43,813 bases of DNA, taken from contig JAHEDB010000001.1 in assembly GCA_024641465.1 (NCBI GenBank), forward strand, positions 1 through 43,813. Direction: 5' to 3'. The notes below the pieces were generated by a model. That model searched no databases. It was given only the letters and a program-made list of their open reading frames with translations, and was not told where the DNA came from. Below are positions 9,566 through 43,686 of this stretch, piece by piece; position 1 is the first letter of the stretch; each line of letters begins with the position of its first letter. The position numbers were made by a program, and so were the translations under genes. The DNA is from Chromatiales bacterium. Lineage in GTDB: Bacteria; Pseudomonadota; Gammaproteobacteria; UBA6429; Thiohalophilaceae.

Positions 9566-9674
9566 TCAGAAGGGGGGCATTCTACATAGGGCAACCGGTA
9601 TAAGCAAGCAGGGTCTTGTGCAATTTAAGCGGATTGCATTATGCAAGGAAAAAGGTAATCATTCTCAGGCCATG

Positions 9675-9691
9675 ATCAATAACTTATTGAT
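9675..9691. promoter_or_regulatory. 17-bp perfect palindrome ATCAATAAcTTATTGAT upstream of soxY (candidate operator)
   Basis: Read directly from the sequence. It lies about 92 bp upstream of the soxY ATG in a non-coding stretch. No cognate regulator is known. Confidence 0.25.
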
Positions 9692-9782
9692 TTTTAAGAA
9701 ACCACAAACATGGTATGAGTCTTGCTCTATCACGACCTACAGTACGAATACTAAATCAAGCGAGTTTGGAGGATTTACCCGA

Positions 9783-10253
9783 ATGAATAACCTACGTCGA
9801 ACCTTTCTCAAGGCTGGTATGACCACCGCTACCGTTGCGGTCGCCGCCGGTGCCGGCCTGCTCACCCCGGGCTCCGTGCTGGCCGCCTGGCCCAAATCAG
9901 CCTTTGAAACCAAAAAGATGGACGAAGCCATCAAGATCCTTAATGGCAGCGCCGCAGCCACCAACAGCAAGGACATTACCGTCGAGGCACCCGATATCGC
10001 GGAAAATGGCGCCGTGGTCTCAGTGACCGTTAAAACCAATCTGGCCAATGTCGAGAAAATCACGATTCTGGTACCAGAAAACGTTAGCCCCCTGGCTGCC
10101 AGCTATGAACTGAGCGCGCAAACAGATGGTTTCGTTACAGGCCGTATCAAAATGCGCAAAACCTCCGATGTCATCGCTATCGTCAAGGCTGGTGGCAAAC
10201 TGATGACCGCCAAAAAGCCGGTCAAGGTGACCCTGGGTGGTTGTGGCGGTTAA
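9783..10253 (+). CDS. soxY: Sulfur-carrier protein SoxY
   Basis: 156 aa from the ATG at 9783 (GGAGGA Shine-Dalgarno). Tat-like signal MNNLRRTFLKAG...AA, and the diagnostic C-terminal GGCGG* motif that carries the sulfur-binding Cys. Confidence 0.9.
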   Translation: MNNLRRTFLKAGMTTATVAVAAGAGLLTPGSVLAAWPKSAFETKKMDEAIKILNGSAAATNSKDITVEAPDIAENGAVVSVTVKTNLANVEKITILVPENVSPLAASYELSAQTDGFVTGRIKMRKTSDVIAIVKAGGKLMTAKKPVKVTLGGCGG

Positions 10254-30040: not shown

Positions 30041-31069
30041 CTAACCGATGCGCCTGAGTATCTGTACCCGCCGGTTATAGGCATCGACGATATATATATA
30101 GTATCCTGATGTCGCAATTCCACTAGGGATATTAAAGAGCCCGGGGCCCGTTCCCGCGCCACCAATGGGCAGCAGGAAGTGTCCGCCCTTGTCGTAGATC
30201 AGCAGGTGATCAAAATGGGCATCAACTATATATATAGTGTCCTGGTCATCCAGCGCGATACCCTTTGGTTTACTGAACTCACCCAAGCGATCACCCAGCT
30301 TTCCAAAGTGGCTCTTTGGGCGGTGCAATTTATCAAAAATCTGTACCCGAAAGTTCATGCTGTCTGTGACGTACAAATTGCCCTGCCGGTCGAAGGCCAG
30401 GTGGGTCGGGTAATTGAATTTGCCCGTTCCGGCCCCACGCTTGCCAAATTGCCCGAGTTTTTTACCTGACGGGTAATAGATATGGATATTGTGCCCCAGG
30501 GTATCGAGCACATAAATATTGCCCGTGACCGGTTGGACCGCGATATCGGTCGGCCGAAGCCAGGCCTTGTCCGTTATCCGGCCCAGGCTATCACCCGTTG
30601 CTGAAAGGCGGTAAATCACCCGCGCCTCGGAATCACTAACCAGGATCTCTCCCTGTGCGGTCAAGGCCGTCCCTAGCGGACTGATCAGTCTATCCTCCCC
30701 CACTTGCTGAATAAATCGATAATCATCATTTGTTGCGCCGATGATATGTATCGCGGCGGCGCCAGGATCGGTCACCACCATCAGCCCCTTGGCGGATACG
30801 GCGATATCGTGAGGTCTTTTGAAGTGACGGCTTGGCTGATCGCCAAACAGGAAACTCGTCAGCTGGGATAAAAGACCCTCGTTTTGGGTTTCCGCTTCAC
30901 CATAGATCGACGTCACATATTCGAAGCGTGCCCTGGCGGGGGGCAAGGGCCAGCGGCTCGGTATCTGACTGGCCGCCGCCGGTTCGGCAATCGCCGCCGT
31001 TGACAGCGTGGCCATCCACATAGCAGTCAACAGGCCAAACTGACCAAAGATATTAAAGTATAGTTTCAT
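30041..31069 (-). CDS. Secreted six-bladed NHL-repeat beta-propeller protein (paralog 1)
   Basis: 342 aa with a signal peptide (...LSTAAIAEP). N-terminal WPLPPARARFEY motif followed by six blades ending in the hydrophobic-Y-V/I-x-D pattern (LMVVTD, ILVSDS, IYVLDT, LYVTDS, IYIVDA, IYIVDA). ATGA overlap with the upstream gene. Confidence 0.85.
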   Translation of the reverse strand: MKLYFNIFGQFGLLTAMWMATLSTAAIAEPAAASQIPSRWPLPPARARFEYVTSIYGEAETQNEGLLSQLTSFLFGDQPSRHFKRPHDIAVSAKGLMVVTDPGAAAIHIIGATNDDYRFIQQVGEDRLISPLGTALTAQGEILVSDSEARVIYRLSATGDSLGRITDKAWLRPTDIAVQPVTGNIYVLDTLGHNIHIYYPSGKKLGQFGKRGAGTGKFNYPTHLAFDRQGNLYVTDSMNFRVQIFDKLHRPKSHFGKLGDRLGEFSKPKGIALDDQDTIYIVDAHFDHLLIYDKGGHFLLPIGGAGTGPGLFNIPSGIATSGYYIYIVDAYNRRVQILRRIG

Positions 31070-32106
31070 GGATAGGGTAGCCAGGCTTCCGGGGTGCGGC
31101 GGAAGATCTGCAGGCGTGATGAACCCATTTCGGAAGTGAACAGCCGTTGCCGGGACTGGTCAAAGCTGATATCAGTCAGTTCAACAAATTTCCCCCTGCC
31201 TCGGCCCAGGGCGCCAAGGCTGAGTATTTTCTGCCCGGCAGTATCCAGTACCACTACCTGACTCCGCTCCCTGTCGGCGATATAGATCACGTCGGTTTTT
31301 TCCACACCAATGGCCACCGGTTCACGAAAATACTCTTTATCCAGCTCGATGGTCTGCAACCAGGCACCGTGTGGACTGAATTTCTGAATGCGCCGGGTGA
31401 TAGCCTCCAGAATATAGAGGTTACCATCCATATCAGCCGTCAGGTCAGACAGCCCTGAGAAACGTCCCCTGTCCTTACCCTGTTCGCCAAACATATAAAG
31501 AAATACCCCACTCAGGCTAAACACATAGACCCGGCCCTGAAAACTATCTGCAACATAAAGGCGTTGCCTTATCTCATCCACCGCGAGCCGGTCCGGGCGA
31601 GTCCACAGTAATGCCGCACCGAACTGGCGAATAAACTGTCCGTTGTCCTGATACACAAGGACCTGCGCCTTGAGTGAGTCGAGCAGATAGATCCGTTTCA
31701 TATCATCAACGGCGACATCCTTTATGGCCGTCACAGCCCTGCCATTAGTGTATTTCAGGGTGTTGACTGTGTTTCGATATCGATCAACCACATGGGCGCT
31801 GCCGCGATCCTGATCGACAACAACCATCAGGTCCCTGCTGGCGGCCACACGGTAGGGTCTGATCATTTGCAGGTTTTGCCCGCTACCAGTGGCTATTCCA
31901 ATGTAAGCAGAGACGGCCTGGTTGATATCAACTGCTTGCTCATAGATCAGCCGTGCCGGGGTCGGTGGTAAAGGCCAAACCAGACCATCATCACCGGCCT
32001 GGGTGACCATTTGCAAAAATCCCTGACAGCCTGACAAACTCATGGCCAGCACTAAACCGGCCAGGATCATCAACCGTGTTTGCATGAGGGAGTAAGGCTT
32101 TGTCAT
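31066..32106 (-). CDS. NHL-repeat beta-propeller lipoprotein (paralog 2)
   Basis: 346 aa with lipobox LSGC, the motif VWPLPPTPARLIY and six NHL-like blades (IYLLDS, LYVADS, LYILEA, IYIADR ...). Confidence 0.85.
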   Translation of the reverse strand: MTKPYSLMQTRLMILAGLVLAMSLSGCQGFLQMVTQAGDDGLVWPLPPTPARLIYEQAVDINQAVSAYIGIATGSGQNLQMIRPYRVAASRDLMVVVDQDRGSAHVVDRYRNTVNTLKYTNGRAVTAIKDVAVDDMKRIYLLDSLKAQVLVYQDNGQFIRQFGAALLWTRPDRLAVDEIRQRLYVADSFQGRVYVFSLSGVFLYMFGEQGKDRGRFSGLSDLTADMDGNLYILEAITRRIQKFSPHGAWLQTIELDKEYFREPVAIGVEKTDVIYIADRERSQVVVLDTAGQKILSLGALGRGRGKFVELTDISFDQSRQRLFTSEMGSSRLQIFRRTPEAWLPYP

Positions 32107-32115
32107 ATACTCTGG

Positions 32116-32943
32116 TTATTTCACCGCATTCTTTGCCTGCTTGCTCACGGAGTGACAGCGATTACAATCCGCGATAGGAAACGCCACCTTGCCGTGGCAG
32201 ACACCGCAATACTCGCCACTATTGATTTTCTTCATAGTAATCGGGTTTCCACCCCGTTTCATCTGGAAAATATCGGGATGACAATTGCTACAATCCAGCC
32301 AGGCGGTATGTGCCTTATGCGGGAACAATACATTGTTCATTGTACCCGCTACCTCCATGGGTATGTTCATGTCCAGAGTAAACTGCTCCTTTGAACCAAA
32401 CTGATCCGCCCGCGGGTTGATCTGGTGTTTGTTAAGTGCGGCCACCCAGTTAACCCCATTACCGAAGGTAGCCGTTGGCAATGTCTTGAGTGCCTCCAGC
32501 GGCGGTTGCAGATCATGTAAATCCGCTGCCGGATCATGCACACCATCATCGATCAACGCCTGGACCACGGCTTTCTCGCGTTTGAATCGATAAAAGTCAT
32601 TGGGGTCCCGGCCGCGTTGTTTTGTTTCATATTTCTTTTCAATTTCCACCTTGGATTTCATGATCTTCTTGACCTGCGTCACGCGCGCGGTCTTATCGTC
32701 CTTGCCGGATGGCGCTTGTGTCTTTGCACTATCATCCTGCTGGATTTTTTCGGCTTCTTTCCTGACATCGTCCAAAGAAGGTACGACAGCCGAACTGCCG
32801 GCCGATGCATCCTGTGCCGCAGGTGCAACTATTGCCTTGTCACCACCGGTCTCCTGCTTGACGGCATCATCGGTAGTGGCGCAGGCGGTTACCGACATCA
32901 GTATCAACAGTAAAATACTTTTACGATTTTGTTTACATAACAT
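32116..32943 (-). CDS. Trihaem c-type cytochrome lipoprotein (c7/c3-like C-terminal domain behind a long charged linker)
   Basis: Three CXXCH motifs (CSNCH, CGVCH, CNRCH) within the last ~60 aa. Lipobox VTAC. The ATG at 32943 has an AGGTGA Shine-Dalgarno; the ORF-track start at 32952 is GTG. Confidence 0.85.
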   Translation of the reverse strand: MLCKQNRKSILLLILMSVTACATTDDAVKQETGGDKAIVAPAAQDASAGSSAVVPSLDDVRKEAEKIQQDDSAKTQAPSGKDDKTARVTQVKKIMKSKVEIEKKYETKQRGRDPNDFYRFKREKAVVQALIDDGVHDPAADLHDLQPPLEALKTLPTATFGNGVNWVAALNKHQINPRADQFGSKEQFTLDMNIPMEVAGTMNNVLFPHKAHTAWLDCSNCHPDIFQMKRGGNPITMKKINSGEYCGVCHGKVAFPIADCNRCHSVSKQAKNAVK

Positions 32944-32948
32944 AAGTA

Positions 32949-33320
32949 TCACCTAGTTTTCTTTACTTGCTTATCTTTTTCTTCGGTGGCTGTCCCGGTA
33001 TGACATCGATCACAATACACCGGCGCCCAGGCAATCTTGCCGTTATGACAGGCCCCGCAGAACTGGCCACCGGCAATCTTGTTCATATCTATATGATTAG
33101 CCTCACGTTTCATTTTAAATCCAAGCTGTTGATGGCAGACCAGGCAGCGGAAACGAATGCGATGAAACCAGTGCGGGAACACCGCCGGTCGCATACCGTT
33201 TTTTTCCGAGTAGTTATTTATCCGCACATCGCCGTATTCGGCCTTAGCCGTGGATATAAAGAGAAAAAATCCCAGCATAATGACGACCATCCCAATCACG
33301 CGATATATACATCGTGACAT
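32949..33320 (-). CDS. Small trihaem c-type cytochrome with an N-terminal membrane anchor or uncleaved signal
   Basis: 123 aa with a GGAGG Shine-Dalgarno. The hydrophobic segment VIGMVVIMLGFFLFISTAKA is followed by CLVCH, CGACH and CDRCH. The domain is a paralog of the C-terminus of the downstream gene. Confidence 0.85.
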   Translation of the reverse strand: MSRCIYRVIGMVVIMLGFFLFISTAKAEYGDVRINNYSEKNGMRPAVFPHWFHRIRFRCLVCHQQLGFKMKREANHIDMNKIAGGQFCGACHNGKIAWAPVYCDRCHTGTATEEKDKQVKKTR

Positions 33321-33458
33321 AATAAAAATACCTCCAAACCTATCATCTATTCCAAAAAGTAAAACCAGCCAGTTCTATGCAAGCCTTATAAAAACTTCAG
33401 CATAACTGCTATCCAATATATAACGCACAAAAATATAATCAGCACACCTCCGAATCCA

Positions 33459-35243
33459 TTACTTATCACCAAAAGAAAAATCGCGCCGCACCTTTGCAAA
33501 CCAAATCGAATCTTCCGTAACAATACCGCCAGTCTCGCTTTGCTTGCGCATAAATCCGGCTTCAGAAAACAATTTACCGAATTGATGGGTGAAACGCACA
33601 TCAAACAGTTTATTATGTTCTTCAACTCCGCTCTGGTTTGTTCTGTTTTCCGTAAGGTATGAGCCACTGCATAAAACATTGCTGCCGAATACCGGGGTGA
33701 CATAGTCAATCCGATTATAGGATGTATGTACTTCGGTATTTTCAGTCTGGGTGAATTCGGTAAATGTGGCGTTTTCCACATGCCCCTTGGTGTATGAAGA
33801 GCCGGCCTGTAGTTTAACTGTCGCCCGCTGTAATACCCTGTGCTCATAATTCAGGTAACTTCTGAATTGCTCGGAGTTGACGGTCATGTCGCTTTCCTGC
33901 TCCAAGGTGGTATAGGATACGTTTCCATTCAGACGTCCGCCCAGGACAGCGCCATCCAGGCGCAGGCCTTTTTCCTGTTGTACCGTCTTGGTTGCGTGGA
34001 TATTGGATTGCCCGTTATAGCCATAATTCACGTCATAATACGGGCTCACCATCAGGCTACCCATCTGTAACCCCAGTTCCGCCCTACCGCCGGTTTGATT
34101 AAAAGAACCATCCTGCTGCTGGGTTTCGTTTGCTGATTCAATCTGCCTTGTAAAACGACCGCCGCTTAACCTGCCCTGTAATTCAAGACTGCCGAACAAC
34201 ACGGCCCTGGTGTAAGCCAGGCCGGATCGTTTGTCCCGACTGTTATAGGCTTCCCCGTTCAGATCGGTGTGCAATTCGTAGCCGCTGGCAAAGGCCGACA
34301 AATGATCGGTCAGGTTATAATCGATATTTACCCGTCCATCGCGGGCTTCGCGCCGGCTGGCTTCGTAATCGTCGAGAAAGTAATTGCCATATACGCCGAT
34401 ATTGACCCTTTTAGTCGGGTTCCACAGCATGGAAACATTATGGCTTCGGCTGTCCTGGTCGGAATATAATGGGTCGAATGTTGCATCCGGATTATCTGAT
34501 TTACGCTGATAGTCGCTGTAAACCACGGAGGTTTGCAGCGTGTCCGATGGCCGGTACACCCAGGAACTGGTCAGGCGATTCGCCTGTGCGGAACGCGCCG
34601 TGTATTTCTCACTGTAATCACTGTTTTCATAGCGCAGGTTGGCTGTCAATCCCTCCCAGCGTTTGAACATGTTGATCCCGCCTGTGCTGCTGTCCTGTTC
34701 ACTCAAAACAGAGACAAGATTACTGCGTGTGGTCTGACCGTAGTAAAACAGGTTAGTTGTCGGTAGTGTGTAAAAATCCAGTTTCAAATCGGCCCCATAT
34801 AATTTTGTATCAATACTTGAGTCAGGACTCGTTTGCATAGTCACATCGGTATCGTTTTCGATTGCATACAAAGTCAGGGGAAAGGGACTATACGGAAATA
34901 ACTTGCCATTGAACCGATATGAAGTCAGGCTTGTCGTGCTCTCGTCTGAATCCCGGACGGTATTGCTCTCCGACAAGGTCCCGCCAAGCCGGTAATCTGC
35001 CAACCACGGTCTGTATAGATAATCGGAATAGTCCAGATTGAGGCGCTGAGTCTGGTTTTTTGTCCTGACATCATTATTGTCTGACGTAGAGGTACGACCT
35101 TGCTGGGCACCAAGTTCAATATCACCACTGACTTCTCCGGCATAAACCGGCCGGTATAAAATGTTACTCAAGGTGACACATACTATACCCAAAAAGAAAA
35201 AGCATACCTGCCGAATCATCCGCAGCCACATACACATTGACAA
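33459..35243 (-). CDS. Predicted outer-membrane beta-barrel protein (~590 aa), family not recognised
   Basis: Signal peptide ending VYA/GE and no Cys in the mature part. The composition is rich in Y/S/T/N/G/D/R with alternating hydrophobic/polar runs (LNLDYSDYLY, LKLDFYTLPTTNLFYYG, VNIDYNLTDHLSAFASGYEL, ...), typical of large porin-like barrels. The start codon is uncertain (TTG at 35243, ATG at 35237, 35231 or 35219). Confidence 0.6.
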   Translation of the reverse strand: MSMCMWLRMIRQVCFFFLGIVCVTLSNILYRPVYAGEVSGDIELGAQQGRTSTSDNNDVRTKNQTQRLNLDYSDYLYRPWLADYRLGGTLSESNTVRDSDESTTSLTSYRFNGKLFPYSPFPLTLYAIENDTDVTMQTSPDSSIDTKLYGADLKLDFYTLPTTNLFYYGQTTRSNLVSVLSEQDSSTGGINMFKRWEGLTANLRYENSDYSEKYTARSAQANRLTSSWVYRPSDTLQTSVVYSDYQRKSDNPDATFDPLYSDQDSRSHNVSMLWNPTKRVNIGVYGNYFLDDYEASRREARDGRVNIDYNLTDHLSAFASGYELHTDLNGEAYNSRDKRSGLAYTRAVLFGSLELQGRLSGGRFTRQIESANETQQQDGSFNQTGGRAELGLQMGSLMVSPYYDVNYGYNGQSNIHATKTVQQEKGLRLDGAVLGGRLNGNVSYTTLEQESDMTVNSEQFRSYLNYEHRVLQRATVKLQAGSSYTKGHVENATFTEFTQTENTEVHTSYNRIDYVTPVFGSNVLCSGSYLTENRTNQSGVEEHNKLFDVRFTHQFGKLFSEAGFMRKQSETGGIVTEDSIWFAKVRRDFSFGDK

Positions 35244-35248
35244 TACGC

Positions 35249-36265
35249 CTACCTCCCAACATATGTCGGGCCAGCACCGATGATGATTTTTGAATTATCC
35301 CGCAAACCCTGTCGCAGGTCGTCAAACCATTGCCGGTATTTCACCGTAAGCACGTCATTTTTGACCTGTTCACGGACCTCATCAAAACTAAAGGCCTGCT
35401 GCGGTACCGATTTGACTTTTTTCAACAATATATATCCATTCAGAGTAAACAACGGTTTTAAAATATCCCCATCGGCCAGCTTGTCTAGCCCTCGAACATC
35501 ATAGCCACGCATACCCTCATGAATGGTCTTCTCGGTTATCTTCAGTCCGGCTTGTTTTTTGTAAGCGTCGAAACTTTTGCTTTTCCTGACCTCTTTGTAT
35601 AGCGAATTGATCCGTTGACGTGCCTTGTCCCATTCCTGCTTGGTGGATGACGGAGGCATCTCAATCATTAACTCAACGGTCTTAATGGTTTTCGGCGAGC
35701 GGTATTTTTCACGGTGCTCGTTAAAATATGCCTCTACATCAACATCCTTCGGCATAGAGGCCTGTTTACCCTGCTCCCATAACTTTGTAATGACGTAGGA
35801 TCGCCTAAGGTCTTCATGTAACCGATTCTTCACCTCCTCATCGGCCAGCGCGAGTTGCATCTGTTTATCTGCGGTATATTTCTCGCGATATTTTGCGTAG
35901 GTAAATTCCACCCATTGTTCATCCCAGCCTATACCGCGATGCAAGGCCTCGCGATAGAACAATTCCTTATCGACGATATTTTCAATCGCCTGTTTACGGA
36001 TCGCCTGCCAGCGCTCCTTCGAGAGATTGTGATATTCAGCCACGGGTGCAAGCCGTTCGACTTCACGTGTCACTTCATCTTCGGCAATCGGCACACCATT
36101 GACAATCACAGTCGACAGGGTCTCGACCATATCGGCCTTTTCTGCCAGGACTGGACTGGACGCCAGACCGGCGAGGGGCAAGCCCCACGCCAGCACTAGC
36201 AACCAGCCGGCGACCAACACCGCCGGCCTGGGTTGAGACCGTTCCGCTACGCTTGCAGTCGTCAT
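35249..36265 (-). CDS. Periplasmic SurA/PpiD-like peptidyl-prolyl cis-trans isomerase (parvulin type)
   Basis: About 338 aa. Signal/anchor ...LVLAWGLPLAGLASSPVLA, a SurA-N-like helical region, and a parvulin-like segment (...PKTIKTVELMIEMP...GYILLKKV...). AGAGGAAGG Shine-Dalgarno. The stop lies 5 nt before the barrel gene. Confidence 0.75.
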   Translation of the reverse strand: MTTASVAERSQPRPAVLVAGWLLVLAWGLPLAGLASSPVLAEKADMVETLSTVIVNGVPIAEDEVTREVERLAPVAEYHNLSKERWQAIRKQAIENIVDKELFYREALHRGIGWDEQWVEFTYAKYREKYTADKQMQLALADEEVKNRLHEDLRRSYVITKLWEQGKQASMPKDVDVEAYFNEHREKYRSPKTIKTVELMIEMPPSSTKQEWDKARQRINSLYKEVRKSKSFDAYKKQAGLKITEKTIHEGMRGYDVRGLDKLADGDILKPLFTLNGYILLKKVKSVPQQAFSFDEVREQVKNDVLTVKYRQWFDDLRQGLRDNSKIIIGAGPTYVGR

Positions 36266-36280
36266 CACACCTTCCTCTTA

Positions 36281-37132
36281 TTACTTGATGTGACAAACCG
36301 TGCAAAGGCTGCTATTGGCCACGGTGGTACGCAGGAATGAGGGGAAAGGCGCACCAGAGGATGTTCCATCAACCGAAGTCCCGTGTGGGTTGTGACAGGA
36401 AGCGCATTGCACCTTGGTGCCATACAGACGCACTTCATTATCTTCCAGTATGCCGTCTCCATCATCAAACCAGTCAAGTCGGGCATTGCCGGTACCGCGC
36501 GTCGCGGCGGGAGCATTAAACTTCGGATCGGTATTACCGATCGTCGGATAGACAATCGATACCGGGTGGTCATCCCGCAGATCGGTTCCCAGCAGGCGCA
36601 CGTTGGGGTTACCGTTTTCATCGGAGGAAGGGAAAGTATTATTTGTACCGCTACGATTAAATACAAATCCGATGCGATTATTATTACCACCCAGGGTCGG
36701 ATCCGATGGATCGATCCAGCCACCCACACCCGGTTTGTTGACCAACAGGTCAAGCGCAACGGTACCATCATGACAGCTCAGGCATGCCAGGGAAACGCCA
36801 TCCGGTGCCGGGGCAACACCACCTACGCCACTGTCCAGTGTCGGGCTCTGATAGGATTGATAAGTGGCGGTGGTCACCCCACGGTTCCATAAGGGGGCAT
36901 CCACATTATCGCGAGATTGCGAACCGTGCGGGGTATGACAAAACACACAAGTCTGGGTGGTGTCGAAACCGGTTCCACCATCACCGGTTATCTTGACATA
37001 ATTCGCACCGGGATTGGTTGAACTCAAGTCATGCCGACTGCCAACCACCGATGCCGCCTGAACACCCCAGCCTGTTAACATACCAGCTGCGACAAAAATA
37101 CCACCTGTTATTTGTAAAATTTTTGTTTTCAT
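36281..37132 (-). CDS. Secreted tetrahaem c-type cytochrome
   Basis: 283 aa from the ATG at 37132 (GGGAGG Shine-Dalgarno), with signal peptide ...GWGVQAAS. Four CXXCH motifs (CVFCH, CLSCH, CASCH, CTVCH) and four additional conserved His (RHDL, TPH, DHP, NPH), consistent with bis-His ligation. Confidence 0.9.
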   Translation of the reverse strand: MKTKILQITGGIFVAAGMLTGWGVQAASVVGSRHDLSSTNPGANYVKITGDGGTGFDTTQTCVFCHTPHGSQSRDNVDAPLWNRGVTTATYQSYQSPTLDSGVGGVAPAPDGVSLACLSCHDGTVALDLLVNKPGVGGWIDPSDPTLGGNNNRIGFVFNRSGTNNTFPSSDENGNPNVRLLGTDLRDDHPVSIVYPTIGNTDPKFNAPAATRGTGNARLDWFDDGDGILEDNEVRLYGTKVQCASCHNPHGTSVDGTSSGAPFPSFLRTTVANSSLCTVCHIK

Positions 37133-37153
37133 AATTACCTCCCGCGGTAACAT

Positions 37154-38251
37154 TTACATTTTTTCTTCTCGTACTTCAGATTGCTGTTGAACGTCTTGCC
37201 GTATGAACTGCCAGACCTGAATACGGCGGTTATATTGGTCGGCGAAGTAGATTCGATCATTGCCATCGATCCACATGCCGGCCGGCAACCAGAACTCTCC
37301 CGCCCCCTTGCCCATGGTGCCGGCAAATAACAACAGTCGTTTGGTCTGGTCAAAAACCTGTACATTATTGAATGCGGAATCGATGACATAGATATGTCCT
37401 TCCGAATCCACCGCGATACCCTTGGGTCGGGCAAACGACCCTAGCCCGGTGCCGGCGGCGCCGAAACCGTCCAGGTATTTACCCTGGTGGTCAAAGATCT
37501 GCACCCGGAAATTGCCGGTATCGACCACATAGACATGGCCAGTAGCATCGCTACAGATATTGGTTGGGAAATTGAAATTACCCTTGTCGGCACCGCGTTT
37601 GCCAAAGTCGAACTGGTGCCGGCCTTTTGCATCAAACACACTGATGGCGTGATGCGGGCTATCCAGTGTACCGGTATTCACCACATAGATATGACCATTA
37701 AGCGGGTTTACCGTGATCCCGGTCGGCCGTGTCAATAGCTTCGGCCCACCCATGGCACGTTGATAGTTGCCCTTACTGTCATAAACGATCACCCGGGACT
37801 GATGGGCATCGGTAACATACACCATGCCTTGCTTGTCAACGGCCACTGCAATCGGCTTGTCAAGCCGACCGGCGCCTTCGCTGCCGAACACCTTAAAAGT
37901 TTTCTCGCCTTGATTAAACACCAGCAGTTTGCCGAGGATGGTATCCGTGACGTACACGGTCTTGTCGAAGGCGGCCACCCCATAGGGTTTGATCAGTGAC
38001 ACATCCTGCGCCATGCCGCCGACCAGTTGTTTGAAGTTATCGAAGGCGCTCTGTGGTTTGACATCCTTGCTGGAACGGATGCTCTCGACATATTTAAGTC
38101 GCGGCTGCTCCGGAGGCAGCGGCCAGACCCAGTGTTCATCCTGTTTTGTAACGGAACCACAGGCGGCAAGCAGGACAATACCACCCAACATCAGGACCAG
38201 TCTGGGTAAAATAGTCGGCTGGATATTCACTTGATATGGCATGTCACGCAT
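37154..38251 (-). CDS. NHL-repeat beta-propeller lipoprotein (paralog 3)
   Basis: 365 aa with lipobox LAAC, the motif VWPLPPEQPRLKY and six blades (VYVTDT, VYVTDA, IYVVNT, VYVVDT, IYVIDS, IYFADQ). Overlaps the upstream cytochrome gene by 16-25 nt. Confidence 0.85.
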   Translation of the reverse strand: MRDMPYQVNIQPTILPRLVLMLGGIVLLAACGSVTKQDEHWVWPLPPEQPRLKYVESIRSSKDVKPQSAFDNFKQLVGGMAQDVSLIKPYGVAAFDKTVYVTDTILGKLLVFNQGEKTFKVFGSEGAGRLDKPIAVAVDKQGMVYVTDAHQSRVIVYDSKGNYQRAMGGPKLLTRPTGITVNPLNGHIYVVNTGTLDSPHHAISVFDAKGRHQFDFGKRGADKGNFNFPTNICSDATGHVYVVDTGNFRVQIFDHQGKYLDGFGAAGTGLGSFARPKGIAVDSEGHIYVIDSAFNNVQVFDQTKRLLLFAGTMGKGAGEFWLPAGMWIDGNDRIYFADQYNRRIQVWQFIRQDVQQQSEVREEKM

Positions 38252-38982
38252 AGCGCACTCCCCTGCAATCCAACACGCAAAAAGGGTTTGGTCTTGGCGT
38301 TATGTACGTCATGACAACTCGCGCACTCGACCCGCCCATTAAACAACTTCACGCCATTGGCGAATTCATCACTACCCGGGCGTGGATTAAACTGCTTGTC
38401 CTGCAACAGCGCCGGATAGGTGATCGATACCGGGTGATCGTCACTCAGGTCGTTACCAAAGGCAGCGATGCCCAGGTCATGGATGCCCTTGATATTCTCA
38501 TTACCCTTGCGATGACACTGGCTGCATTGCGTGTCACCGCCGCCCCTGGCGATATGCATGTGCTTTTTCGGCAAGGCCTGTGTATCGCTGATCGGTGGCC
38601 GTTTCATTACGCGATCCACGGCTAGACTGCCGTCATGGCAGCTCAGACAGGCGAGGGTGATACCGGCGGGTTGAGAGATCGTTGCGTCGAGGGTGGGGCT
38701 TTGATACAGCTTGTATTCGGTTACCGGGTATTCGCGGTTCCACAGCGGGGCCTTGCCCTCTGAGGACTCGCTTACCGGACGGTGTGGTGTATGGCAATAA
38801 ACACAGGTGCTCTGATAATTTTCAAATGCCACACCGACCATGACCCCGGTCCCGGCACGATTGTCCAGACTGGTGAGGTCGTGTTTGCTGCCCAGCATCG
38901 ACATTGCCGAGCCGGTTTCTGTTACAGCAGCCAGTCCTGTCATCAAGACAAAGCCCAGCGCTGTTGACCTGTTACACCACAT
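38227..38982 (-). CDS. Secreted pentahaem c-type cytochrome
   Basis: Five CXXCH motifs (CVYCH, CLSCH, CSQCH, CASCH, CVTCH). The ATG at 38982 gives a plausible signal peptide, MWCNRSTALGFVLMTGLAAV.... The ORF-track start at 39018 is TTG. Confidence 0.88.
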   Translation of the reverse strand: MWCNRSTALGFVLMTGLAAVTETGSAMSMLGSKHDLTSLDNRAGTGVMVGVAFENYQSTCVYCHTPHRPVSESSEGKAPLWNREYPVTEYKLYQSPTLDATISQPAGITLACLSCHDGSLAVDRVMKRPPISDTQALPKKHMHIARGGGDTQCSQCHRKGNENIKGIHDLGIAAFGNDLSDDHPVSITYPALLQDKQFNPRPGSDEFANGVKLFNGRVECASCHDVHNAKTKPFLRVGLQGSALCVTCHIK

Positions 38983-39095
38983 GCTATATCCATCACACCC
39001 GTAAAAAAAAATAATCAAGCCAAAAAATCATTTTTCCCTGTTTTTTTACTGTTCCGTGGGGACGGAAGGATAATCAATATTAGACATCGCTGTTA

Positions 39096-39109
39096 TTGAT
39101 CTGGATCAA
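39096..39109. promoter_or_regulatory. FNR/CRP-family box 1: TTGATctggATCAA (perfect FNR consensus)
   Basis: Read directly from the sequence, in the divergent intergenic region, 87-123 bp upstream of the pentahaem gene start depending on the start choice. Confidence 0.7.
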
Positions 39110-39153
39110 GGTAAAATTGCATTACATTATTTAATTTCCGGATATAAATTTTC

Positions 39154-39167
39154 TTGATCTAGATCAA
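39154..39167. promoter_or_regulatory. FNR/CRP-family box 2: TTGATctagATCAA (perfect FNR consensus, core of the 18-bp palindrome TCTTGATCTAGATCAAGA)
   Basis: Read directly from the sequence, 58 bp centre-to-centre from box 1 and 67-82 bp upstream of the monohaem cytochrome start. Confidence 0.7.
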
Positions 39168-39248
39168 GAAATTGCTGGGGTTTCTGTAATCAAATCCCCC
39201 GCCCGTTCGGAACGGGAAAAATAACAATTTCAAATGAGGAATAAAAAT

Positions 39249-39560
39249 ATGGTATACCGCAGTAAAGTAATTCTGATAACCCTTGCCCTGGCAACATCAC
39301 CTGCCGTTGTTTTTGCAGCTAACACCCATAACGGTAACAGCCTCTTTCAGGAAAAATGCGCTGTTTGTCATGGTAAGGACGGCCATGCCGTATTGCCTGG
39401 CGCACCCAACTTTGCCAAGGGTGAGCGTATGGAAAAGCCTGATAGCACGCTCAAGGCCACGATTACCAATGGGCTGAACGTCATGCCCCCCTTCAAGGGC
39501 GCCCTGTCAGATGCCCAGATGGGTGATCTGCTGGCCTTCATCCGCACACTCAGAAAATAG
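39249..39560 (+). CDS. Periplasmic monohaem class I cytochrome c (c551/c552-like)
   Basis: Signal peptide MVYRSKVILITLALATSPAVVFA, one CAVCH motif and a distal Met in NVMPPF. The ATG at 39249 has a GAGGA Shine-Dalgarno 8 nt upstream; an alternative ATG lies at 39234. Confidence 0.88.
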   Translation: MVYRSKVILITLALATSPAVVFAANTHNGNSLFQEKCAVCHGKDGHAVLPGAPNFAKGERMEKPDSTLKATITNGLNVMPPFKGALSDAQMGDLLAFIRTLRK

Positions 39561-39568
39561 ATCACTTC

Positions 39569-39600
39569 GGGTCCATGCTGGATATGGACCCGTTTTCTTT
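39569..39600 (+). terminator. Terminator/attenuator-like hairpin between the monohaem and undecahaem cytochrome genes
   Basis: 8-bp stem gggtccat/atggaccc with a 7-nt loop, then GTTTTCTTTC. It starts 9 nt after the cytochrome c stop and covers the first two in-frame ATGs of the next ORF. Confidence 0.4.
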
Positions 39601-41899
39601 CATCATAATGAAATCCACCCCACCGGCTCAAAACAGGTTTATCAAACTGCTAGACACATGCTACGTACCTGCGTCTATCTGCCTGATAATCATCATGAAT
39701 TACTTACCCTGTGCATCGCTCTATGCGGCCCCCCAGGAAGACATACTCAATACCCGGCACAATCTCTCGGTGAGTGGCAGCGGGGAGGTGCGCGCCACCA
39801 GTGAAAACCGCGTATGTGTCTTTTGTCATACGCCCCACCGTGCCGGTAATACCGAGTATCAGGCACCCTTGTGGAACCGTGAGTTGTCCAAGGTTTATTA
39901 CAATGTCTATCAAAGTACCGCACTACAGGCCGGCCCGCTGGGCCAGCCCGATGGCAGTTCCCGACTCTGTCTGAGTTGTCATGATGGCACGATAGCCATC
40001 GGCAAGGTTAACAACCTGTGGGGACAAAGCCAGACTATCCAGATGAACGGCATAGCCAGCGATGGCACCATGCCACACGGCACCGGCGTACAAAGCGGTT
40101 TTACCCGCCGGCTGGGTTCAGATCTGACGAATGATCATCCCATCTCCTTTCGCTATGATGCGGCGCTGGCGGCCGCCGATGGTGAACTGCATATCCCACC
40201 TAATCAATATGTCCGCGCCCGCGTCCCGGGGGAGGCCCAGGTCTCCCTGCCACTGGATGAGGCCGAAAAGGTGCAATGCACCACTTGTCATAATCCGCAT
40301 CTGGCCGGTGTCGATAAATTCCTGCGCTGGCCCCTTACCCAGACCAGCGATAGCGCCAGCAGCGGTACGGGCGCCATTCTTTGCCTGCAGTGCCATGACA
40401 AGCAAAGCTGGATCGGCAGCGCCCACCAATCCGCCACTATCGCCGATGAACAATATACGCCAGGCAATTATCTCGGTAAGGAAGGGCAGGTATGGCAACA
40501 CGCCTGTCTGAATTGTCATGATACCCACACCGTGCAAGGCGCCAAACACCTGCTCAAGGAAGGCACCGATAGCCCCGCCAAACCCAAAAACGGCGGTAAT
40601 CCGGCGCAGGAACAAACCTGTTATTTATGTCATAGCCCCGCCGGTGAAAGTGTCTTGAGCGTATTTCAAAATCGACCACCGAATATCAAGTCTGAATTCG
40701 CCAAGACCTATCACATGCCGATCACCGGCAATGAGCAGGGTATCATCGGAGAAAGCCACCGTATTGAAGATGCCGATCTGACCGAACCCGCCAGCAACCT
40801 CGGTAGCCAGCGTCATGTTGAATGCAGTGACTGTCACAATCCCCATCGTGCCGGGCCGCAGCGACATAAACACAGCGCCCCCCATAGCAACCTGCTTGAG
40901 GCCAATAGCCCACTCAATGGTATGTGGGGTATCGAACCCTCGTTCAGCGGTCCGACTGCCTTTCCCGCCATTGGCCAACCCATTCTGTCGCTGTTCATCA
41001 ACTTAATGAAACCGGCCACTCGTGAATACCAGATCTGTCTCAAGTGTCATTCAAGCTATGCCTATGGTAACAATCCGCCGATGTTGAAAAGCTTTACCGG
41101 CGGCGGCTCATACGGTGTAAACGAGCTCACCCAGGCAACGGATCAGGCCAAGGAATTCAATCCCAACAATGCCTCTTATCATCCGATCATTCAATCTACA
41201 CACAGAACACTGGCAACAAGAAATATTACCGGCACCAGTCCATTCCTGGCCCCTTTTAGTCAGGTCGGTAATCAGACCATGTATTGCACCGATTGCCACG
41301 GCGCCGATACGCCCTCCGGCACATCCACCCCGCTCAGTAACACGCCGTGGGGGCCGCATGGTTCAAACAATGCCTTCGTGCTGAAGGGACGCTGGGACAT
41401 CAACGAATCGCCGCCCAATTCCAGCTGGTTGTGTTTCCGTTGTCATGATCAAAACGTATATGCCAGTCCGGCCGGTGGTGACCCCAATGTCACCGGCTAC
41501 CGTGGGCCCACCATGATGGGTGTCGTACAGAACCTGCATCGCTATCACTACTCGCGCCTCGGCAGTCAGTTCAAGTGCGTGCTGTGCCACAGCGCCGTGC
41601 CCCATGGCTGGAACGGCAATCCCGCCAATCCCCTGTATGGCACACCAAACTATGCCAAGATGTTGCTGGTGGAGCGGGACGATGCCCCGCCCTATCGCAC
41701 CAGCGCCACCCGTCTGCTGGTGGACAGCTGGGCTAACAGCGGCAGCTGGAGTTTTAATAATTGCCGCACAGCCATGCAGGGCGGCACCCTGCGCGGCCAG
41801 ACCTGGACCGGTTGTGCCGGAATGGGCGGTGGCGGTGGCGGTGGCGGCGGTGGCGGTGGCGGTGGCGGCGGTGGCGGCGGTGGCGGCGGTTTGCCATGA
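39575..41899 (+). CDS. Undecahaem (11 x CXXCH) c-type cytochrome with a C-terminal poly-glycine tail
   Basis: CVFCH, CLSCH, CTTCH, CLQCH, CLNCH, CYLCH, CSDCH, CLKCH, CTDCH, CFRCH and CVLCH. The N-terminal ~230 aa are a paralog of the tetra/pentahaem proteins. The start is uncertain: ATG at 39575 or 39584 (both inside the hairpin) or 39608 (MKSTPPAQNRFIKLL...). The stop overlaps the next gene's ATG (ATGA). Confidence 0.88.
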   Translation: MLDMDPFSFIIMKSTPPAQNRFIKLLDTCYVPASICLIIIMNYLPCASLYAAPQEDILNTRHNLSVSGSGEVRATSENRVCVFCHTPHRAGNTEYQAPLWNRELSKVYYNVYQSTALQAGPLGQPDGSSRLCLSCHDGTIAIGKVNNLWGQSQTIQMNGIASDGTMPHGTGVQSGFTRRLGSDLTNDHPISFRYDAALAAADGELHIPPNQYVRARVPGEAQVSLPLDEAEKVQCTTCHNPHLAGVDKFLRWPLTQTSDSASSGTGAILCLQCHDKQSWIGSAHQSATIADEQYTPGNYLGKEGQVWQHACLNCHDTHTVQGAKHLLKEGTDSPAKPKNGGNPAQEQTCYLCHSPAGESVLSVFQNRPPNIKSEFAKTYHMPITGNEQGIIGESHRIEDADLTEPASNLGSQRHVECSDCHNPHRAGPQRHKHSAPHSNLLEANSPLNGMWGIEPSFSGPTAFPAIGQPILSLFINLMKPATREYQICLKCHSSYAYGNNPPMLKSFTGGGSYGVNELTQATDQAKEFNPNNASYHPIIQSTHRTLATRNITGTSPFLAPFSQVGNQTMYCTDCHGADTPSGTSTPLSNTPWGPHGSNNAFVLKGRWDINESPPNSSWLCFRCHDQNVYASPAGGDPNVTGYRGPTMMGVVQNLHRYHYSRLGSQFKCVLCHSAVPHGWNGNPANPLYGTPNYAKMLLVERDDAPPYRTSATRLLVDSWANSGSWSFNNCRTAMQGGTLRGQTWTGCAGMGGGGGGGGGGGGGGGGGGGGGGLP
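41825..41890 (+). repeat. Imperfect trinucleotide repeat (GGC/GGT) x 22 encoding Gly22
   Basis: Counted codon by codon: 22 consecutive GGY codons in the cytochrome frame, followed by TTG CCA TGA. Confidence 0.95.
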
Positions 41900-42867
41900 A
41901 CCTACTCAACTATGTCAGCTCACACCGCGCAGCCTATAGCAGCATGTTGCTCGTCATGGCTGGCCTATTGCTGCGGCTTGGTTTTCCACAACAGGCCTGG
42001 TTATCGGACAGTCCGCTTTATCTGCTACTGCTATGCCTGAGTTTGTCGCTGCTCTACCACTGGCGACGGTTCATAAGCCAGCCGTTGATGCTGGTGTTTC
42101 ATCTGGGCCTGCTGTTTACCCTTGGGGCGATGTTGATCGCTCCCAACTTTCGAGCCACGGGTTATTTTGAACTGGCCGAAGGCCAGACCCTGCATGATCA
42201 CTTGATCTTTTTTGAGGGTGGACATTTTGCCGACAGTCCACCGACTGACTGGTCGCTTACTCAGGAAACGATTCACGTCGAATACCAATACGGCAACATC
42301 GGCAAGGCCATCCACACACAACTCTTCGATCAACAACAAGGCCAGACAGTGGCCATTGGTTTTATGCAGGCCGCCACCATCCATGGTTATCGTATCGAAC
42401 CCACCGGTAACATGGGCTATGCGGCGGTATTTACCTTTACCGACTTACAGGGCAAACAGACCCGTGGTGTCGTCAACTTCCCCGGTTATCCAACACAGAA
42501 ACTCCAGACCAATCCATTTAAAACCCCAAATGGCAAATGGACCAACGCGACCCTGGAAATGGAACAATGGCCCTATCAGGATCATACGGCCTGGACACTG
42601 GCTATCCCGGCATCGGCGCGCATCAAACTCAAGGCTGAACAAAACCGCTTTGTGCTTAAACCCGGCGAAATTCACAAATTGCCTTCCGGTCAATTAAAGC
42701 TCGACAAGATCAGTCGCTGGCTGGGTTATAAACTTAGTCGTGACCCACTGGCCCCCATGATATTTTTCAGCAGCCTGTTGAGTTGTCTGTCACTCGCCCT
42801 GTACTACTTGCGAACCCAAAAAATCGAGATAGTGAAATGGTACAGAGTTTTCTCTACGGCGGCTTGA
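41896..42867 (+). CDS. ResB/CcsB-like cytochrome c biogenesis protein (short form, 323 aa)
   Basis: ResB-type topology: three N-terminal TM helices (the third carries a conserved-looking His, VFHLGLLFTLG), a ~190-aa periplasmic domain and one C-terminal TM. Lies directly upstream of a CcsA-like gene. The family call is by architecture and context only. Confidence 0.6.
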   Translation: MNLLNYVSSHRAAYSSMLLVMAGLLLRLGFPQQAWLSDSPLYLLLLCLSLSLLYHWRRFISQPLMLVFHLGLLFTLGAMLIAPNFRATGYFELAEGQTLHDHLIFFEGGHFADSPPTDWSLTQETIHVEYQYGNIGKAIHTQLFDQQQGQTVAIGFMQAATIHGYRIEPTGNMGYAAVFTFTDLQGKQTRGVVNFPGYPTQKLQTNPFKTPNGKWTNATLEMEQWPYQDHTAWTLAIPASARIKLKAEQNRFVLKPGEIHKLPSGQLKLDKISRWLGYKLSRDPLAPMIFFSSLLSCLSLALYYLRTQKIEIVKWYRVFSTAA

Positions 42868-43583
42868 GCTGTTACCTGCTGGCAACCGTGATGAGCCGGT
42901 TTACCCGGCGCGGTTTGGTACCGATACTGATGATCGGCAGCACCCTGCACGGCATCGCCCTGTTGCAAGACTGGATGGACAACCAGCATGGGCCCTATCT
43001 GGGGTTATTTGATTCTCTATCGAGTAATCTGTGGACCCAACTCCTGGTGTTAGGCTTGCTGGCCAGTTTTAAGCTGTCATTTCAACGCGCCCTGCCTTAT
43101 GGCCTCGCCCTTGCCCTGCCCTTCGTTATCTGGCTGACTTTCGTCTCACCCGAACATCACTCCCTGCCACCAACCTACGCTACCCGCTGGTTCTACCTGC
43201 ACCTGTATGCCGGCAAGCTCGCCTATAGCCTGTTATTCATTGCCGTCACACTCAGTATTTATGAATGGCGCAACAAGCAAGCTATCTCATACACAACCCA
43301 ATACATCATGCTACTCGCCTTTCTCTGTCACAGCCTGCTGCTGTTTGCAGGTGGCAACTGGGCCTATCTCGCCTGGGGCAAATACTGGGACTGGAATCCG
43401 CTTGAGATCTGGAGCCTGCTGACCTGGTTGGGGTTTGGCTTATTTTTTCATCGCCGCAGTATGACAAATTGGAAATACTTGCCGGGTCAACACGGGTTTA
43501 TCACGCTGATCTATCTACTCGCGATATTGGGATTTTACGGGATTCCATTTTTGAGCAAGGCGACGCACCAGGGACTGGTTTGA
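42837..43583 (+). CDS. ccsA: CcsA-like cytochrome c assembly protein (haem-handling, WWD-domain family)
   Basis: 248 aa, polytopic. Trp-rich motif WGKYWDWNPLEIWSLLTWL followed by a His (FFHRR), and an earlier TM His (YLHLYAG). Overlaps the ResB-like gene by 31 nt. Confidence 0.8.
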   Translation: MVQSFLYGGLSCYLLATVMSRFTRRGLVPILMIGSTLHGIALLQDWMDNQHGPYLGLFDSLSSNLWTQLLVLGLLASFKLSFQRALPYGLALALPFVIWLTFVSPEHHSLPPTYATRWFYLHLYAGKLAYSLLFIAVTLSIYEWRNKQAISYTTQYIMLLAFLCHSLLLFAGGNWAYLAWGKYWDWNPLEIWSLLTWLGFGLFFHRRSMTNWKYLPGQHGFITLIYLLAILGFYGIPFLSKATHQGLV

Positions 43584-43649
43584 GGGTTGTGGATATTTCT
43601 TCAGTTTGAATCTCTGACGCGATTCATTATCAAAAGATACAAATGAAAA

Positions 43650-43675
43650 AGCCCTGCAACTTCCGTTGCAGGGCT
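43650..43675. terminator. Bidirectional rho-independent terminator between ccsA-like (+) and tRNA-Leu (-)
   Basis: 11-bp stem agccctgcaac/gttgcagggct with a 4-nt loop, flanked by A5 upstream and TTCTCTGATTTT downstream. Confidence 0.7.
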
Positions 43676-43686
43676 TTCTCTGATTT

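Follow-up and report, generated by a model that had tools for sequence, protein, structure and literature searches.

Is a 13.5-kb island of multihaem cytochrome, NHL propeller and beta-barrel genes in a gammaproteobacterial contig a new kind of extracellular electron-transfer system, or a known kind in an unfamiliar order? The island lies at positions 30041 to 43583 of contig JAHEDB010000001.1 (assembly GCA_024641465.1, Chromatiales bacterium), and we analysed the whole stretch of 43,813 nucleotides that contains it, here called the window. An earlier note, written from the letters of the window without database searches, had read the island as a candidate electron conduit that matches no known architecture. 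The second part of that claim does not hold, as the gene order is that of the uet cluster named in 2022 (10.1101/2022.05.06.490989). We consider it probable that the island belongs, as a divergent member, to the Uet family, and that Uet clusters are also extracellular-cytochrome modules of the OmcE type; judged from sequence, an extracellular electron-transfer role is the best reading of the island. How Uet works bears on neutrophilic iron oxidation and electroautotrophy. For the window alone, the result is mainly the correct annotation of a predicted extracellular electron-transfer module of a kind already known, in a rare, rearranged variant; the interest lies in the bridge between Uet and OmcE, in the arrangement of three OmcE-like paralogues and in the culturable carriers listed below.

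The island and the Uet family

Listing of open reading frames (ORFs) and domain scans place 13 genes in two divergent arms, nine on the minus strand (39018 to 30041) and four on the plus strand. The nine packed minus-arm genes described by the earlier note are all present at the positions it gave, with the domains and the spacing it reported; gaps and overlaps between them are small, and the sole larger gap is one of 138 nt (33321-33458). The plus-arm genes (1-haem cytochrome c, 11-haem cytochrome, ResB-like and CcsA-like) are likewise present, with revised starts for the 11-haem and ResB-like genes. Counting gives the claimed total of 27 CXXCH motifs, distributed over the cytochromes as 5, 4, 3, 3, 1 and 11. 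Read outwards from the spacer between the arms, with lengths in amino acids (aa) and PPIase for peptidyl-prolyl isomerase, the genes are:

38227..39018, minus strand: 5-haem OmcE-like cytochrome, first gene of the minus arm; 5 CXXCH; probable start the ATG at 38982
37154..38251, minus strand: NHL six-bladed beta-propeller lipoprotein; Pfam NHL E 7e-28, DUF5128 E 2e-19; lipobox LLAAC
36281..37153, minus strand: 4-haem OmcE-like cytochrome, UetA equivalent; 4 CXXCH; probable start 37132
35249..36268, minus strand: SurA-like parvulin PPIase, UetB equivalent; Pfam Rotamase_2 E 1.4e-8, weak SurA_N_3 E 2.5e-4
33459..35243, minus strand: predicted outer-membrane beta-barrel, UetC equivalent; 594 aa; 0 CXXCH; 28-strand AlphaFold2 model
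32949..33320, minus strand: c7-type trihaem cytochrome, UetD-like; 123 aa; TIGR04257 (nanowire_3heme) 62.8 bits, cut-off 40; Pfam Cytochrome_C7 E 2.5e-13
32116..32952, minus strand: c7-type trihaem lipoprotein, UetE-like; 278 aa; C-terminal trihaem domain; TIGR04257 72.9 bits; lipobox VTAC
31066..32106, minus strand: NHL/DUF5128 beta-propeller lipoprotein, UetH-like; DUF5128 E 1e-19, NHL E 1e-8; lipobox LSGC
30041..31069, minus strand: secreted NHL beta-propeller, UetI-like, last gene of the minus arm; Pfam NHL E 3e-25; signal peptide
39234..39560, plus strand: class I monohaem cytochrome c, candidate soluble periplasmic carrier; Pfam Cytochrome_CBB3 E 1.5e-14; signal peptide
39575..41899, plus strand: 11-haem cytochrome, UetJ equivalent; 11 CXXCH; OmcE-like 4-haem N-terminal module, 7-haem extension, C-terminal Cys...Cys loop and 22-Gly tail
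41896..42867, plus strand: ResB/CcsB-like System II cytochrome c biogenesis protein; Pfam ResB E 6e-8
42783..43583, plus strand: CcsA-like haem lyase subunit; Pfam Cytochrom_C_asm E 1e-13

A signal peptide or lipobox can be read on every soluble product, which bears out the claim that export signals or anchors occur throughout; the 123-aa trihaem cytochrome, previously taken to be membrane-anchored, may instead be a cleaved periplasmic protein, because its hydrophobic N-terminus ends in AKA, with the cut before E. The trihaem lipoprotein at 32116-32952 has a low-complexity linker of ~100 residues, rich in Ala, Lys, Asp, Glu and Gln, between its lipobox and its folded part, an arrangement reminiscent of the 'haems on chains' discussed in connection with PgcA. 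For the ResB-like gene the most likely start is the ATG at 41896, which overlaps the stop codon of the 11-haem gene as ATGA; the listed start at 41761 comes from an alternative-frame read through a (GGC/GGT)n repeat. The 11-haem gene itself probably starts at 39608 rather than 39575.

The uet cluster was defined in Candidatus Tenderia electrophaga and the Tenderiales, where it comprises a tetrahaem cytochrome (UetA), a PPIase (UetB), a beta-barrel with a predicted 28 strands (UetC), c7-type trihaem cytochromes (UetD, UetE and UetG), a cupredoxin (UetF), NHL proteins (UetH and UetI) and an undecahaem cytochrome (UetJ), followed by ccsAB (10.1101/2022.05.06.490989). Later reports place it in six genomes of Gallionella (PMC10734462) and among members of the Leptothrix group (PMC13386937). 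The window has the 4-haem UetA, the PPIase UetB, a 28-strand UetC, c7-type trihaems, two NHL proteins, the 11-haem UetJ and CcsBA; it retains the order A-B-C-D-E...H-I, and the strand number of its barrel model is that of the published UetC prediction. The gene with Rotamase_2 and SurA_N domains starts 12 nt after the 4-CXXCH gene, and the same pair recurs in most canonical loci. Both trihaem cytochromes score above the TIGR04257 cut-off, canonical loci usually having four c7-type genes, and a third NHL gene lies upstream of the UetH/UetI-like pair.

The window differs from the canonical cluster in several respects. Its UetJ-ccsBA arm is divergent, with the monohaem cytochrome c gene ahead of it, whereas in canonical clusters it is co-linear and downstream, and the extra genes for the 5-haem OmcE-like cytochrome and an NHL protein precede uetA. 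Identity to canonical loci is at most 37% for the 4-haem protein and at most 46% for UetJ (BLASTP), and the barrel is connected by a hidden Markov model (HMM) only. Beyond the terminator of the plus arm only 230 nt of contig remain, and for this reason the nrfG and batABD genes of the canonical cluster are not visible in the window.

How widely the arrangement recurs was addressed by scanning the 11-haem protein against a collection of species-representative genomes, which gave UetJ relatives in 437 stretches; the best 80 of these are 37-44% identical over ~700 residues, with E down to 9e-174 (individual loci are cited below by L numbers). Carriers among those listed fall in Thiomicrorhabdus, Thioalkalispiraceae, Sedimenticola, Woeseiaceae and Magnetococcales, and also in Thiobacillus, Gallionella, Rhodocyclaceae and Burkholderiales; Candidatus Intricatilinea gracilis, published as UetJ-encoding (PMC13386937), is also among the UetJ loci (L076). 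UetJ is tandemly duplicated in Thiomicrorhabdus and Thioalkalispiraceae loci (L004, L006). ORFs were called in the UetJ loci and matched to the window proteins. The dominant order, all on one strand, is 4-haem cytochrome, PPIase, a large ORF, four c7 genes, one or two NHL genes, 11-haem cytochrome, ResB and CcsA. Where the full upstream flank is present (n = 52), a barrel is found in 46/52, a PPIase in 44/52, at least two c7 genes in 49/52 and NHL in 49/52. The gene set is far beyond chance and recurs in dozens of genomes, and no gene for a catalytic subunit co-varies with the cluster across the 52 loci. A homologue of the monohaem cytochrome c occurs in two loci of the window's own type (L001 and L086) and in many canonical loci.

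Close relatives of the window's arrangement are confined to L001, L002, L084 and L086, a handful of metagenome contigs and one metagenome-assembled genome (MAG) from NCBI. These loci share the leading pair of 5-haem and NHL genes, two c7 genes only, and an arm of cytochrome c, 11-haem, ResB and CcsA genes on the opposite strand; this arm diverges from the other in the window and L001 and converges with it in L086. The window, L084 and L086 have the PPIase gene, whereas L001 (10001-12674) and L002 (2202-4913) lack it and have the barrel gene directly after the 4-haem gene; because it is missing there, the PPIase would be dispensable or supplied in trans in some lineages. Neither a UetF cupredoxin nor a third trihaem cytochrome is found in any window-type locus. 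Identities within the group are 67% for UetJ, 39-65% for the barrel and ~40-76% for NHL, ResB and CcsA proteins. Given the few relatives and the low identity to canonical loci, the window therefore represents a rare, divergent Uet subtype.

OmcE-like cytochromes at the core

What kind of cytochromes does such a cluster carry? In sequence searches of the PDB the 4-haem protein matches the OmcE filament subunit of Geobacter sulfurreducens (7TFS) over its full length at E 4e-23. The same entry is matched by the 5-haem protein at E 7e-23 and by the 11-haem protein, in residues 48-275, at E 6e-23; for the 5-haem protein the match to 9YUQ has E 5e-21. All three also match 9YUQ, the OmcE bundle of D. 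soudanensis, and the matches of the three modules to the two entries (E 1e-15 to 1e-23) are co-linear over nearly the whole OmcE chain. The modules are paralogues of one another, the 4-haem protein being 35% identical to the 5-haem protein and 31% to the N-terminus of the 11-haem protein. At its cytochrome core the Uet family is, by sequence, homologous to the OmcE nanowire system, and through this homology the Uet and OmcE literatures are joined. That the Uet cytochromes are OmcE homologues may not have been stated explicitly before, because none of the papers searched names both UetJ and OmcE.

The homology extends to the residues expected to hold the haems. In an alignment of 51 diverse 4-haem homologues the four CXXCH motifs and H76, H196 and H257 are invariant, and H41 is conserved in at least 90%. 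Petersen et al. report that OmcE homologues conserve 'four other histidines' (10.1101/2025.10.22.684050), and on this alignment the distal H41, H76, H196 and H257 are their counterparts. In its mature form the 4-haem protein contains no Met and exactly 8 His and 8 Cys, and therefore every His and Cys would be needed for four bis-His c-type haems. Among the window-type loci L001, L002, L084 and L086 this protein is 80-84% identical, compared with ~40-65% for the barrels, NHL proteins and CcsBA, a degree of conservation that would fit a subunit whose entire surface is constrained. The 5-haem protein has 12 His for its 5 haems, and its extra CSQCH motif is kept in five orthologues. OmcE-like tetrahaem cytochromes are widespread, with 7106 matches across phyla.

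The neighbourhood of omcE provides a second line of comparison. Besides OmcE itself, a minimal omcE cluster has a large beta-barrel, two beta-propeller lipoproteins and two multihaem cytochromes, and OmcE homologues with such neighbours exist in Pseudomonadota; some OmcE-like proteins have five haems, the extra one being solvent-exposed, and have been put forward as a possible new nanowire family (10.1101/2025.10.22.684050). The island resembles the omcE clusters of G. sulfurreducens and D. soudanensis in the full-length homology of its 4-haem protein, with four CXXCH motifs and four distal histidines, in its large beta-barrel, beta-propeller lipoproteins and two further multihaem cytochromes, and in a 5-haem paralogue of the kind flagged by Petersen et al. 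For the barrel and the NHL proteins this likeness is one of published parts lists and not of sequence, and filament formation by the window's cytochromes remains putative. The earlier note's remark that NHL, PPIase and barrel genes adjoin filament cytochromes was a good lead, as the island has three OmcE homologues and the omcE cluster has the same kinds of parts. The island differs from the omcE clusters in its host, a sox- and nuo-carrying gammaproteobacterial MAG and not an anaerobic metal reducer, and in its additional parts, which are an 11-haem cytochrome whose N-terminal module is OmcE-like, a PPIase and a CcsBA pair of its own. It lacks glycosylation genes.

The 11-haem protein has some peculiarities at its other end. 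UetJ C-termini (window 41700-41899; L004-L083) share a conserved SG.W...C-G...G..WM...C..PP motif, whose Cys...Cys loop might form a disulphide or serve in sorting or docking. In the window a (GGC/GGT)n repeat at 41825-41890 encodes 22 consecutive Gly just before the final Leu-Pro of the protein, and its reading in another frame gives a spurious Arg/Trp-rich N-terminal extension on the ResB-like ORF. The L001 orthologue has only 3 Gly in its tail, and the 22-Gly tract may be genuinely variable in length or reflect an error of assembly.

The barrel, conduit or filament

The second component on which the assignment depends is the barrel. The 594-aa protein matches no Pfam family even at E 10 and no NCBIfam family, although a 42%-identical homologue (P0127) passes the cut-off of Pfam MtrB_PioB (PF11854) narrowly, at 25.6 bits against 23. 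Its AlphaFold2 model, built from eight sequences, has a mean predicted local distance difference test (pLDDT) score of 82.9 and shows a signal helix followed by 28 beta-strands. The earlier note's view of the parts list as suited to a trans-outer-membrane or extracellular cytochrome system stands. The top Foldseek match in the PDB is MtrB of the Mtr complex (6R2Q_B, E 1.4e-9), at a template modelling (TM) score of only 0.45, with LptD, TonB-dependent transporters, S-layer barrels and ushers ranked below it. Word-indexed searches with the barrel found 6 proteins from the single sequence and 8 from a profile, and an exhaustive profile search of 1.84 billion representatives found 85 relatives at E <= 1e-3, mostly weak and N-terminal, of which five reach E <= 1e-10. 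Because these searches gave few relatives, the link to UetC was taken from position: canonical loci have a large ORF of 570-810 aa between the PPIase and the first trihaem gene, and an HMM built from 37 ORFs at this position in the fetched loci matches the window barrel at E 1.4e-16, while the other 12 window proteins, which serve as negative controls, give E > 0.1.

The structural likeness to MtrB raises the question of how far the island resembles porin-cytochrome conduits. It shares with MtrCAB, MtoAB and PioAB a large outer-membrane barrel and multihaem cytochromes predicted for both sides, and MtrB is the closest solved structure to the barrel model, but the barrel has 28 strands and not 26. 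The earlier note had stated that no MtrA-like decahaem adjoins an MtrB-like barrel; this is correct as to the decahaem, since the window encodes no 10-haem protein and scores with the MtrA/DmsE model (TIGR03508) are 25-44 bits where the cut-off is 192, but too strong as to the barrel, whose top structural match is MtrB. MtrC/OmcA was rejected at 29 bits against a cut-off of 209. The note was right to exclude a Cyc2-type fusion of monohaem cytochrome and porin, the barrel having no CXXCH, and an OmaB/OmbB/OmcB arrangement: the Pcc (OmaB-OmbB-OmcB) and ExtABCD systems were rejected on haem counts (5, 4, 3, 3, 1 and 11 in the island) and on 28 strands, as against octahaem and dodecahaem cytochromes and a ~20-strand porin, which is a comparison of architecture and not of sequence.

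A plain porin-cytochrome conduit of the Mtr or Pcc type is nevertheless the main rival to the OmcE-type module. In it a monomer of UetJ or UetA would sit in the barrel, the other OmcE-like proteins would be monomers at the cell surface, the NHL proteins and PPIase would be assembly aids, and no filament would form. This is the original Uet model (10.1101/2022.05.06.490989), it agrees with MtrB as the best structural match of the barrel, and most of the 7106 OmcE-like tetrahaems found across phyla need not polymerise. We nonetheless hold it to be rather unlikely, as three observations point the other way, suggestively and short of proof: the His and Cys of the mature 4-haem protein, eight of each, are exactly the minimal complement of the filament subunit, the protein is far more conserved than its neighbours (80-84%, against ~40% for the barrel), and the locus carries the gene set by which Petersen et al. 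select nanowire-competent OmcE homologues.

The OmcE-type module could be taken a step further. Uet clusters of sulphur-oxidising, iron-oxidising and other Pseudomonadota might as a whole be OmcE-type nanowire machines, with the 4-haem protein as the polymerising subunit, the 5-haem protein as a 'leaky' subunit or terminator and the N-terminal module of UetJ as the adaptor at base or tip; in this full form we regard the proposal as unlikely. The role for the 5-haem protein draws on its spare histidines and on its extra haem, which is solvent-exposed in published models of other 5-haem proteins. In omcE operons Petersen et al. sought a protein that might act as stopper or tip, and found none (10.1101/2025.10.22.684050), and three OmcE-like paralogues in one locus suggest the roles of subunit, terminator and adaptor. 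If the proposal were true, cytochrome nanowires would be used for electron uptake by aerobic or microaerobic lithotrophs. In any case, the homology to OmcE of UetA, of the 5-haem paralogue and of UetJ over its first 230 residues, with barrel, NHL and trihaem companions parallel to those of the omcE cluster, gives a testable model, in which a filament or filament-like stack would be anchored in the 28-strand barrel. The osc (OmcS-companion) cluster of G. sulfurreducens, as described in a paper citing Shen et al. 2025, is a porin-like pathway of nanowire assembly with several accessory proteins; the island resembles it at the level of that description, on which the comparison was made, but its OmcS subunit is unrelated in sequence to OmcE.

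A further rival is a periplasmic redox module for the turnover or detoxification of a soluble nitrogen or sulphur oxyanion, with the barrel as substrate porin and the NHL proteins as enzymes. The 5-haem protein does give weak, sub-threshold matches to NrfB, NrfH and c552 models, NHL/SGL propellers can be lactonase-like enzymes, and soxY is encoded in the same window. The Nrf-type scores are, however, far under the cut-offs (24-26 bits against 134-167), and on these a nitrite-reductase-like assignment of the 5-haem protein was rejected; the 28-strand barrel is much larger than a solute porin, the homology to an extracellular filament subunit is strong, and among the 52 loci there is no co-varying catalytic subunit gene. 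We judge a soluble-substrate module very improbable.

Promoter region and direction of electron flow

When would the island be expressed, and which way would the electrons go? The 215-nt spacer dividing the arms contains both exact FNR-type boxes of the region:

39096-39109: exact FNR/CRP-type palindrome, TTGATN4ATCAA, TTGATCTGGATCAA
39154-39167: second exact FNR/CRP-type palindrome, TTGATN4ATCAA, TTGATCTAGATCAA, 58 bp from the first

The FNR-type boxes noticed earlier are thus real, and each could serve one arm. With up to one mismatch TTGATN4ATCAA occurs 7 times in the window compared with 1.9 expected, and 0/100 shuffles reach 7. L001 carries one exact box in the corresponding spacer. In the L086 locus (887-2076), and also in L087, genes for a Crp/Fnr-family regulator and a bacterial globin lie directly upstream of the 5-haem gene, and the Fnr-like regulator at L086 has an N-terminal cysteine cluster of the form C-x-C-x4-C-x2-C. 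The consensus box was not found in the GC-richer L086 locus, despite the adjoining Fnr-like regulator. From the boxes and the regulator gene, this rare rearranged Uet subtype probably responds to FNR.

We propose the following working for the island as an OmcE-type Uet module. At low oxygen an FNR-type regulator bound at the two inter-arm palindromes would turn on both operons, and the dedicated CcsBA (System II) pair would attach haem at the 27 sites. The SurA-like PPIase would act as a chaperone and the NHL proteins and lipoproteins as scaffolds for assembly at the outer membrane, where the 28-strand UetC barrel would form the pore. The 4-haem UetA, its 5-haem paralogue and the 11-haem UetJ would be threaded into the barrel or exported through it, the 4-haem protein perhaps polymerising like OmcE, and these OmcE-like cytochromes would move electrons from the cell surface to a partner that is insoluble or extracellular, or back. 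Across the periplasm the two c7-type trihaem cytochromes, one of them a lipoprotein tethered on a long linker, and the monohaem cytochrome c would relay electrons to or from the respiratory chain.

As to direction, uptake from Fe(II), minerals or cathode-like donors, as proposed for Tenderia, is the more likely in this sox- and nuo-carrying gammaproteobacterial MAG; in the Tenderia model the electrons taken up are routed to cbb3 oxidases and to bc1/ACIII encoded elsewhere (10.1101/2022.05.06.490989). Outward flow would make the same machinery an FNR-induced anaerobic respiration to extracellular Fe(III), Mn(IV) or partner cells, a difference of direction only that is compatible with an OmcE-type module. 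The two exact FNR boxes in the divergent promoter and the Fnr-like regulator adjoining the sister locus L086 would suit it, characterised OmcE proteins serve Fe(III) oxide reduction and direct interspecies electron transfer in Geobacter, and denitrifying heterotrophs are among the carriers. Published Uet carriers, however, are mostly cathode, Fe(II) or sulphur oxidisers, with a published model of uptake towards cbb3 oxidases (PMC10734462, 10.1101/2022.05.06.490989), and the monohaem cytochrome adjoining UetJ is of the class that feeds such oxidases. The window also lacks any CymA-, ImcH- or CbcL-type quinol dehydrogenase, and the earlier note too had seen none there. We therefore leave outward flow somewhat short of an even chance.

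Several points weigh against the island as an OmcE-type Uet module that takes up electrons. UetF (the cupredoxin) and UetG (the third trihaem) are absent from the window; for UetF there is no room, as the end of the trihaem lipoprotein gene (32116) all but adjoins the start of the NHL gene (32106), and domain scans gave no copper-domain match among the window proteins. Orthology to the Tenderia type cluster (proteins ALP54622-ALP54631) rests on the published description and on intermediate loci, Tenderia not being among the best 80 of 437 loci listed in the 11-haem scan. Divergence from canonical UetC puts the barrel beyond the reach of BLAST, and the profile is the sole link. The AlphaFold2 model of the 4-haem protein, made from the 51-sequence alignment, has a pLDDT of 43 and was not used, so that the OmcE fold draws its support from sequence; the low value is expected because the protein was modelled haem-free and is roughly 80% coil. 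In 2026 Uet was still termed a predicted porin-cytochrome cluster (PMC13386937). FNR control is equally compatible with an anaerobic, outward-directed role, and UetJ-type loci in heterotrophic isolates weaken a strictly lithotrophic view of uptake.

Cultured isolates with UetJ-type loci that are not classical lithotrophs are Thalassotalea sp. G2M2-11, Ramlibacter albus GTP1, Azospirillum sp. TSO22-1, Motiliproteus sediminis HS6 and Noviherbaspirillum denitrificans TSA40 (L027, L039, L051, L068 and L075), and culturable carriers could serve as experimental hosts for genetics. In N. denitrificans (L075) the best match to the 4-haem protein upstream of UetJ is a 1066-aa ORF with 24 CXXCH motifs, and upstream of UetJ at this locus no match to the PPIase or to a trihaem gene was detected.

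Two hairpins mark the plus arm, the first of which closes it:

43645..43680, no strand assigned: strong, bidirectional intrinsic-terminator hairpin; 13-16 bp stem with 7-8 G-C pairs and a T run

The second, terminator-like, is at 39568-39592, 3' of the cytochrome c gene, and has a 10-bp stem followed by TTTTCTTTC. It is intergenic between the cytochrome c and 11-haem genes because the latter probably starts at 39608, and may be an attenuator that yields more cytochrome c than UetJ.

Outside the island the window carries pnp, truB, infB, nusA, rimP, soxY, a sigma-54 two-component pair and nuoA-N. A true SoxY is encoded at 9618-10253 (TIGR04488, E 9e-47) and the sigma-54-dependent two-component pair at 11615-14951, both upstream of the nuo operon. 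GC content dips to ~0.46-0.49 over 10-16 kb, and a second dip at 32-36 kb coincides with the barrel, PPIase and trihaem genes.

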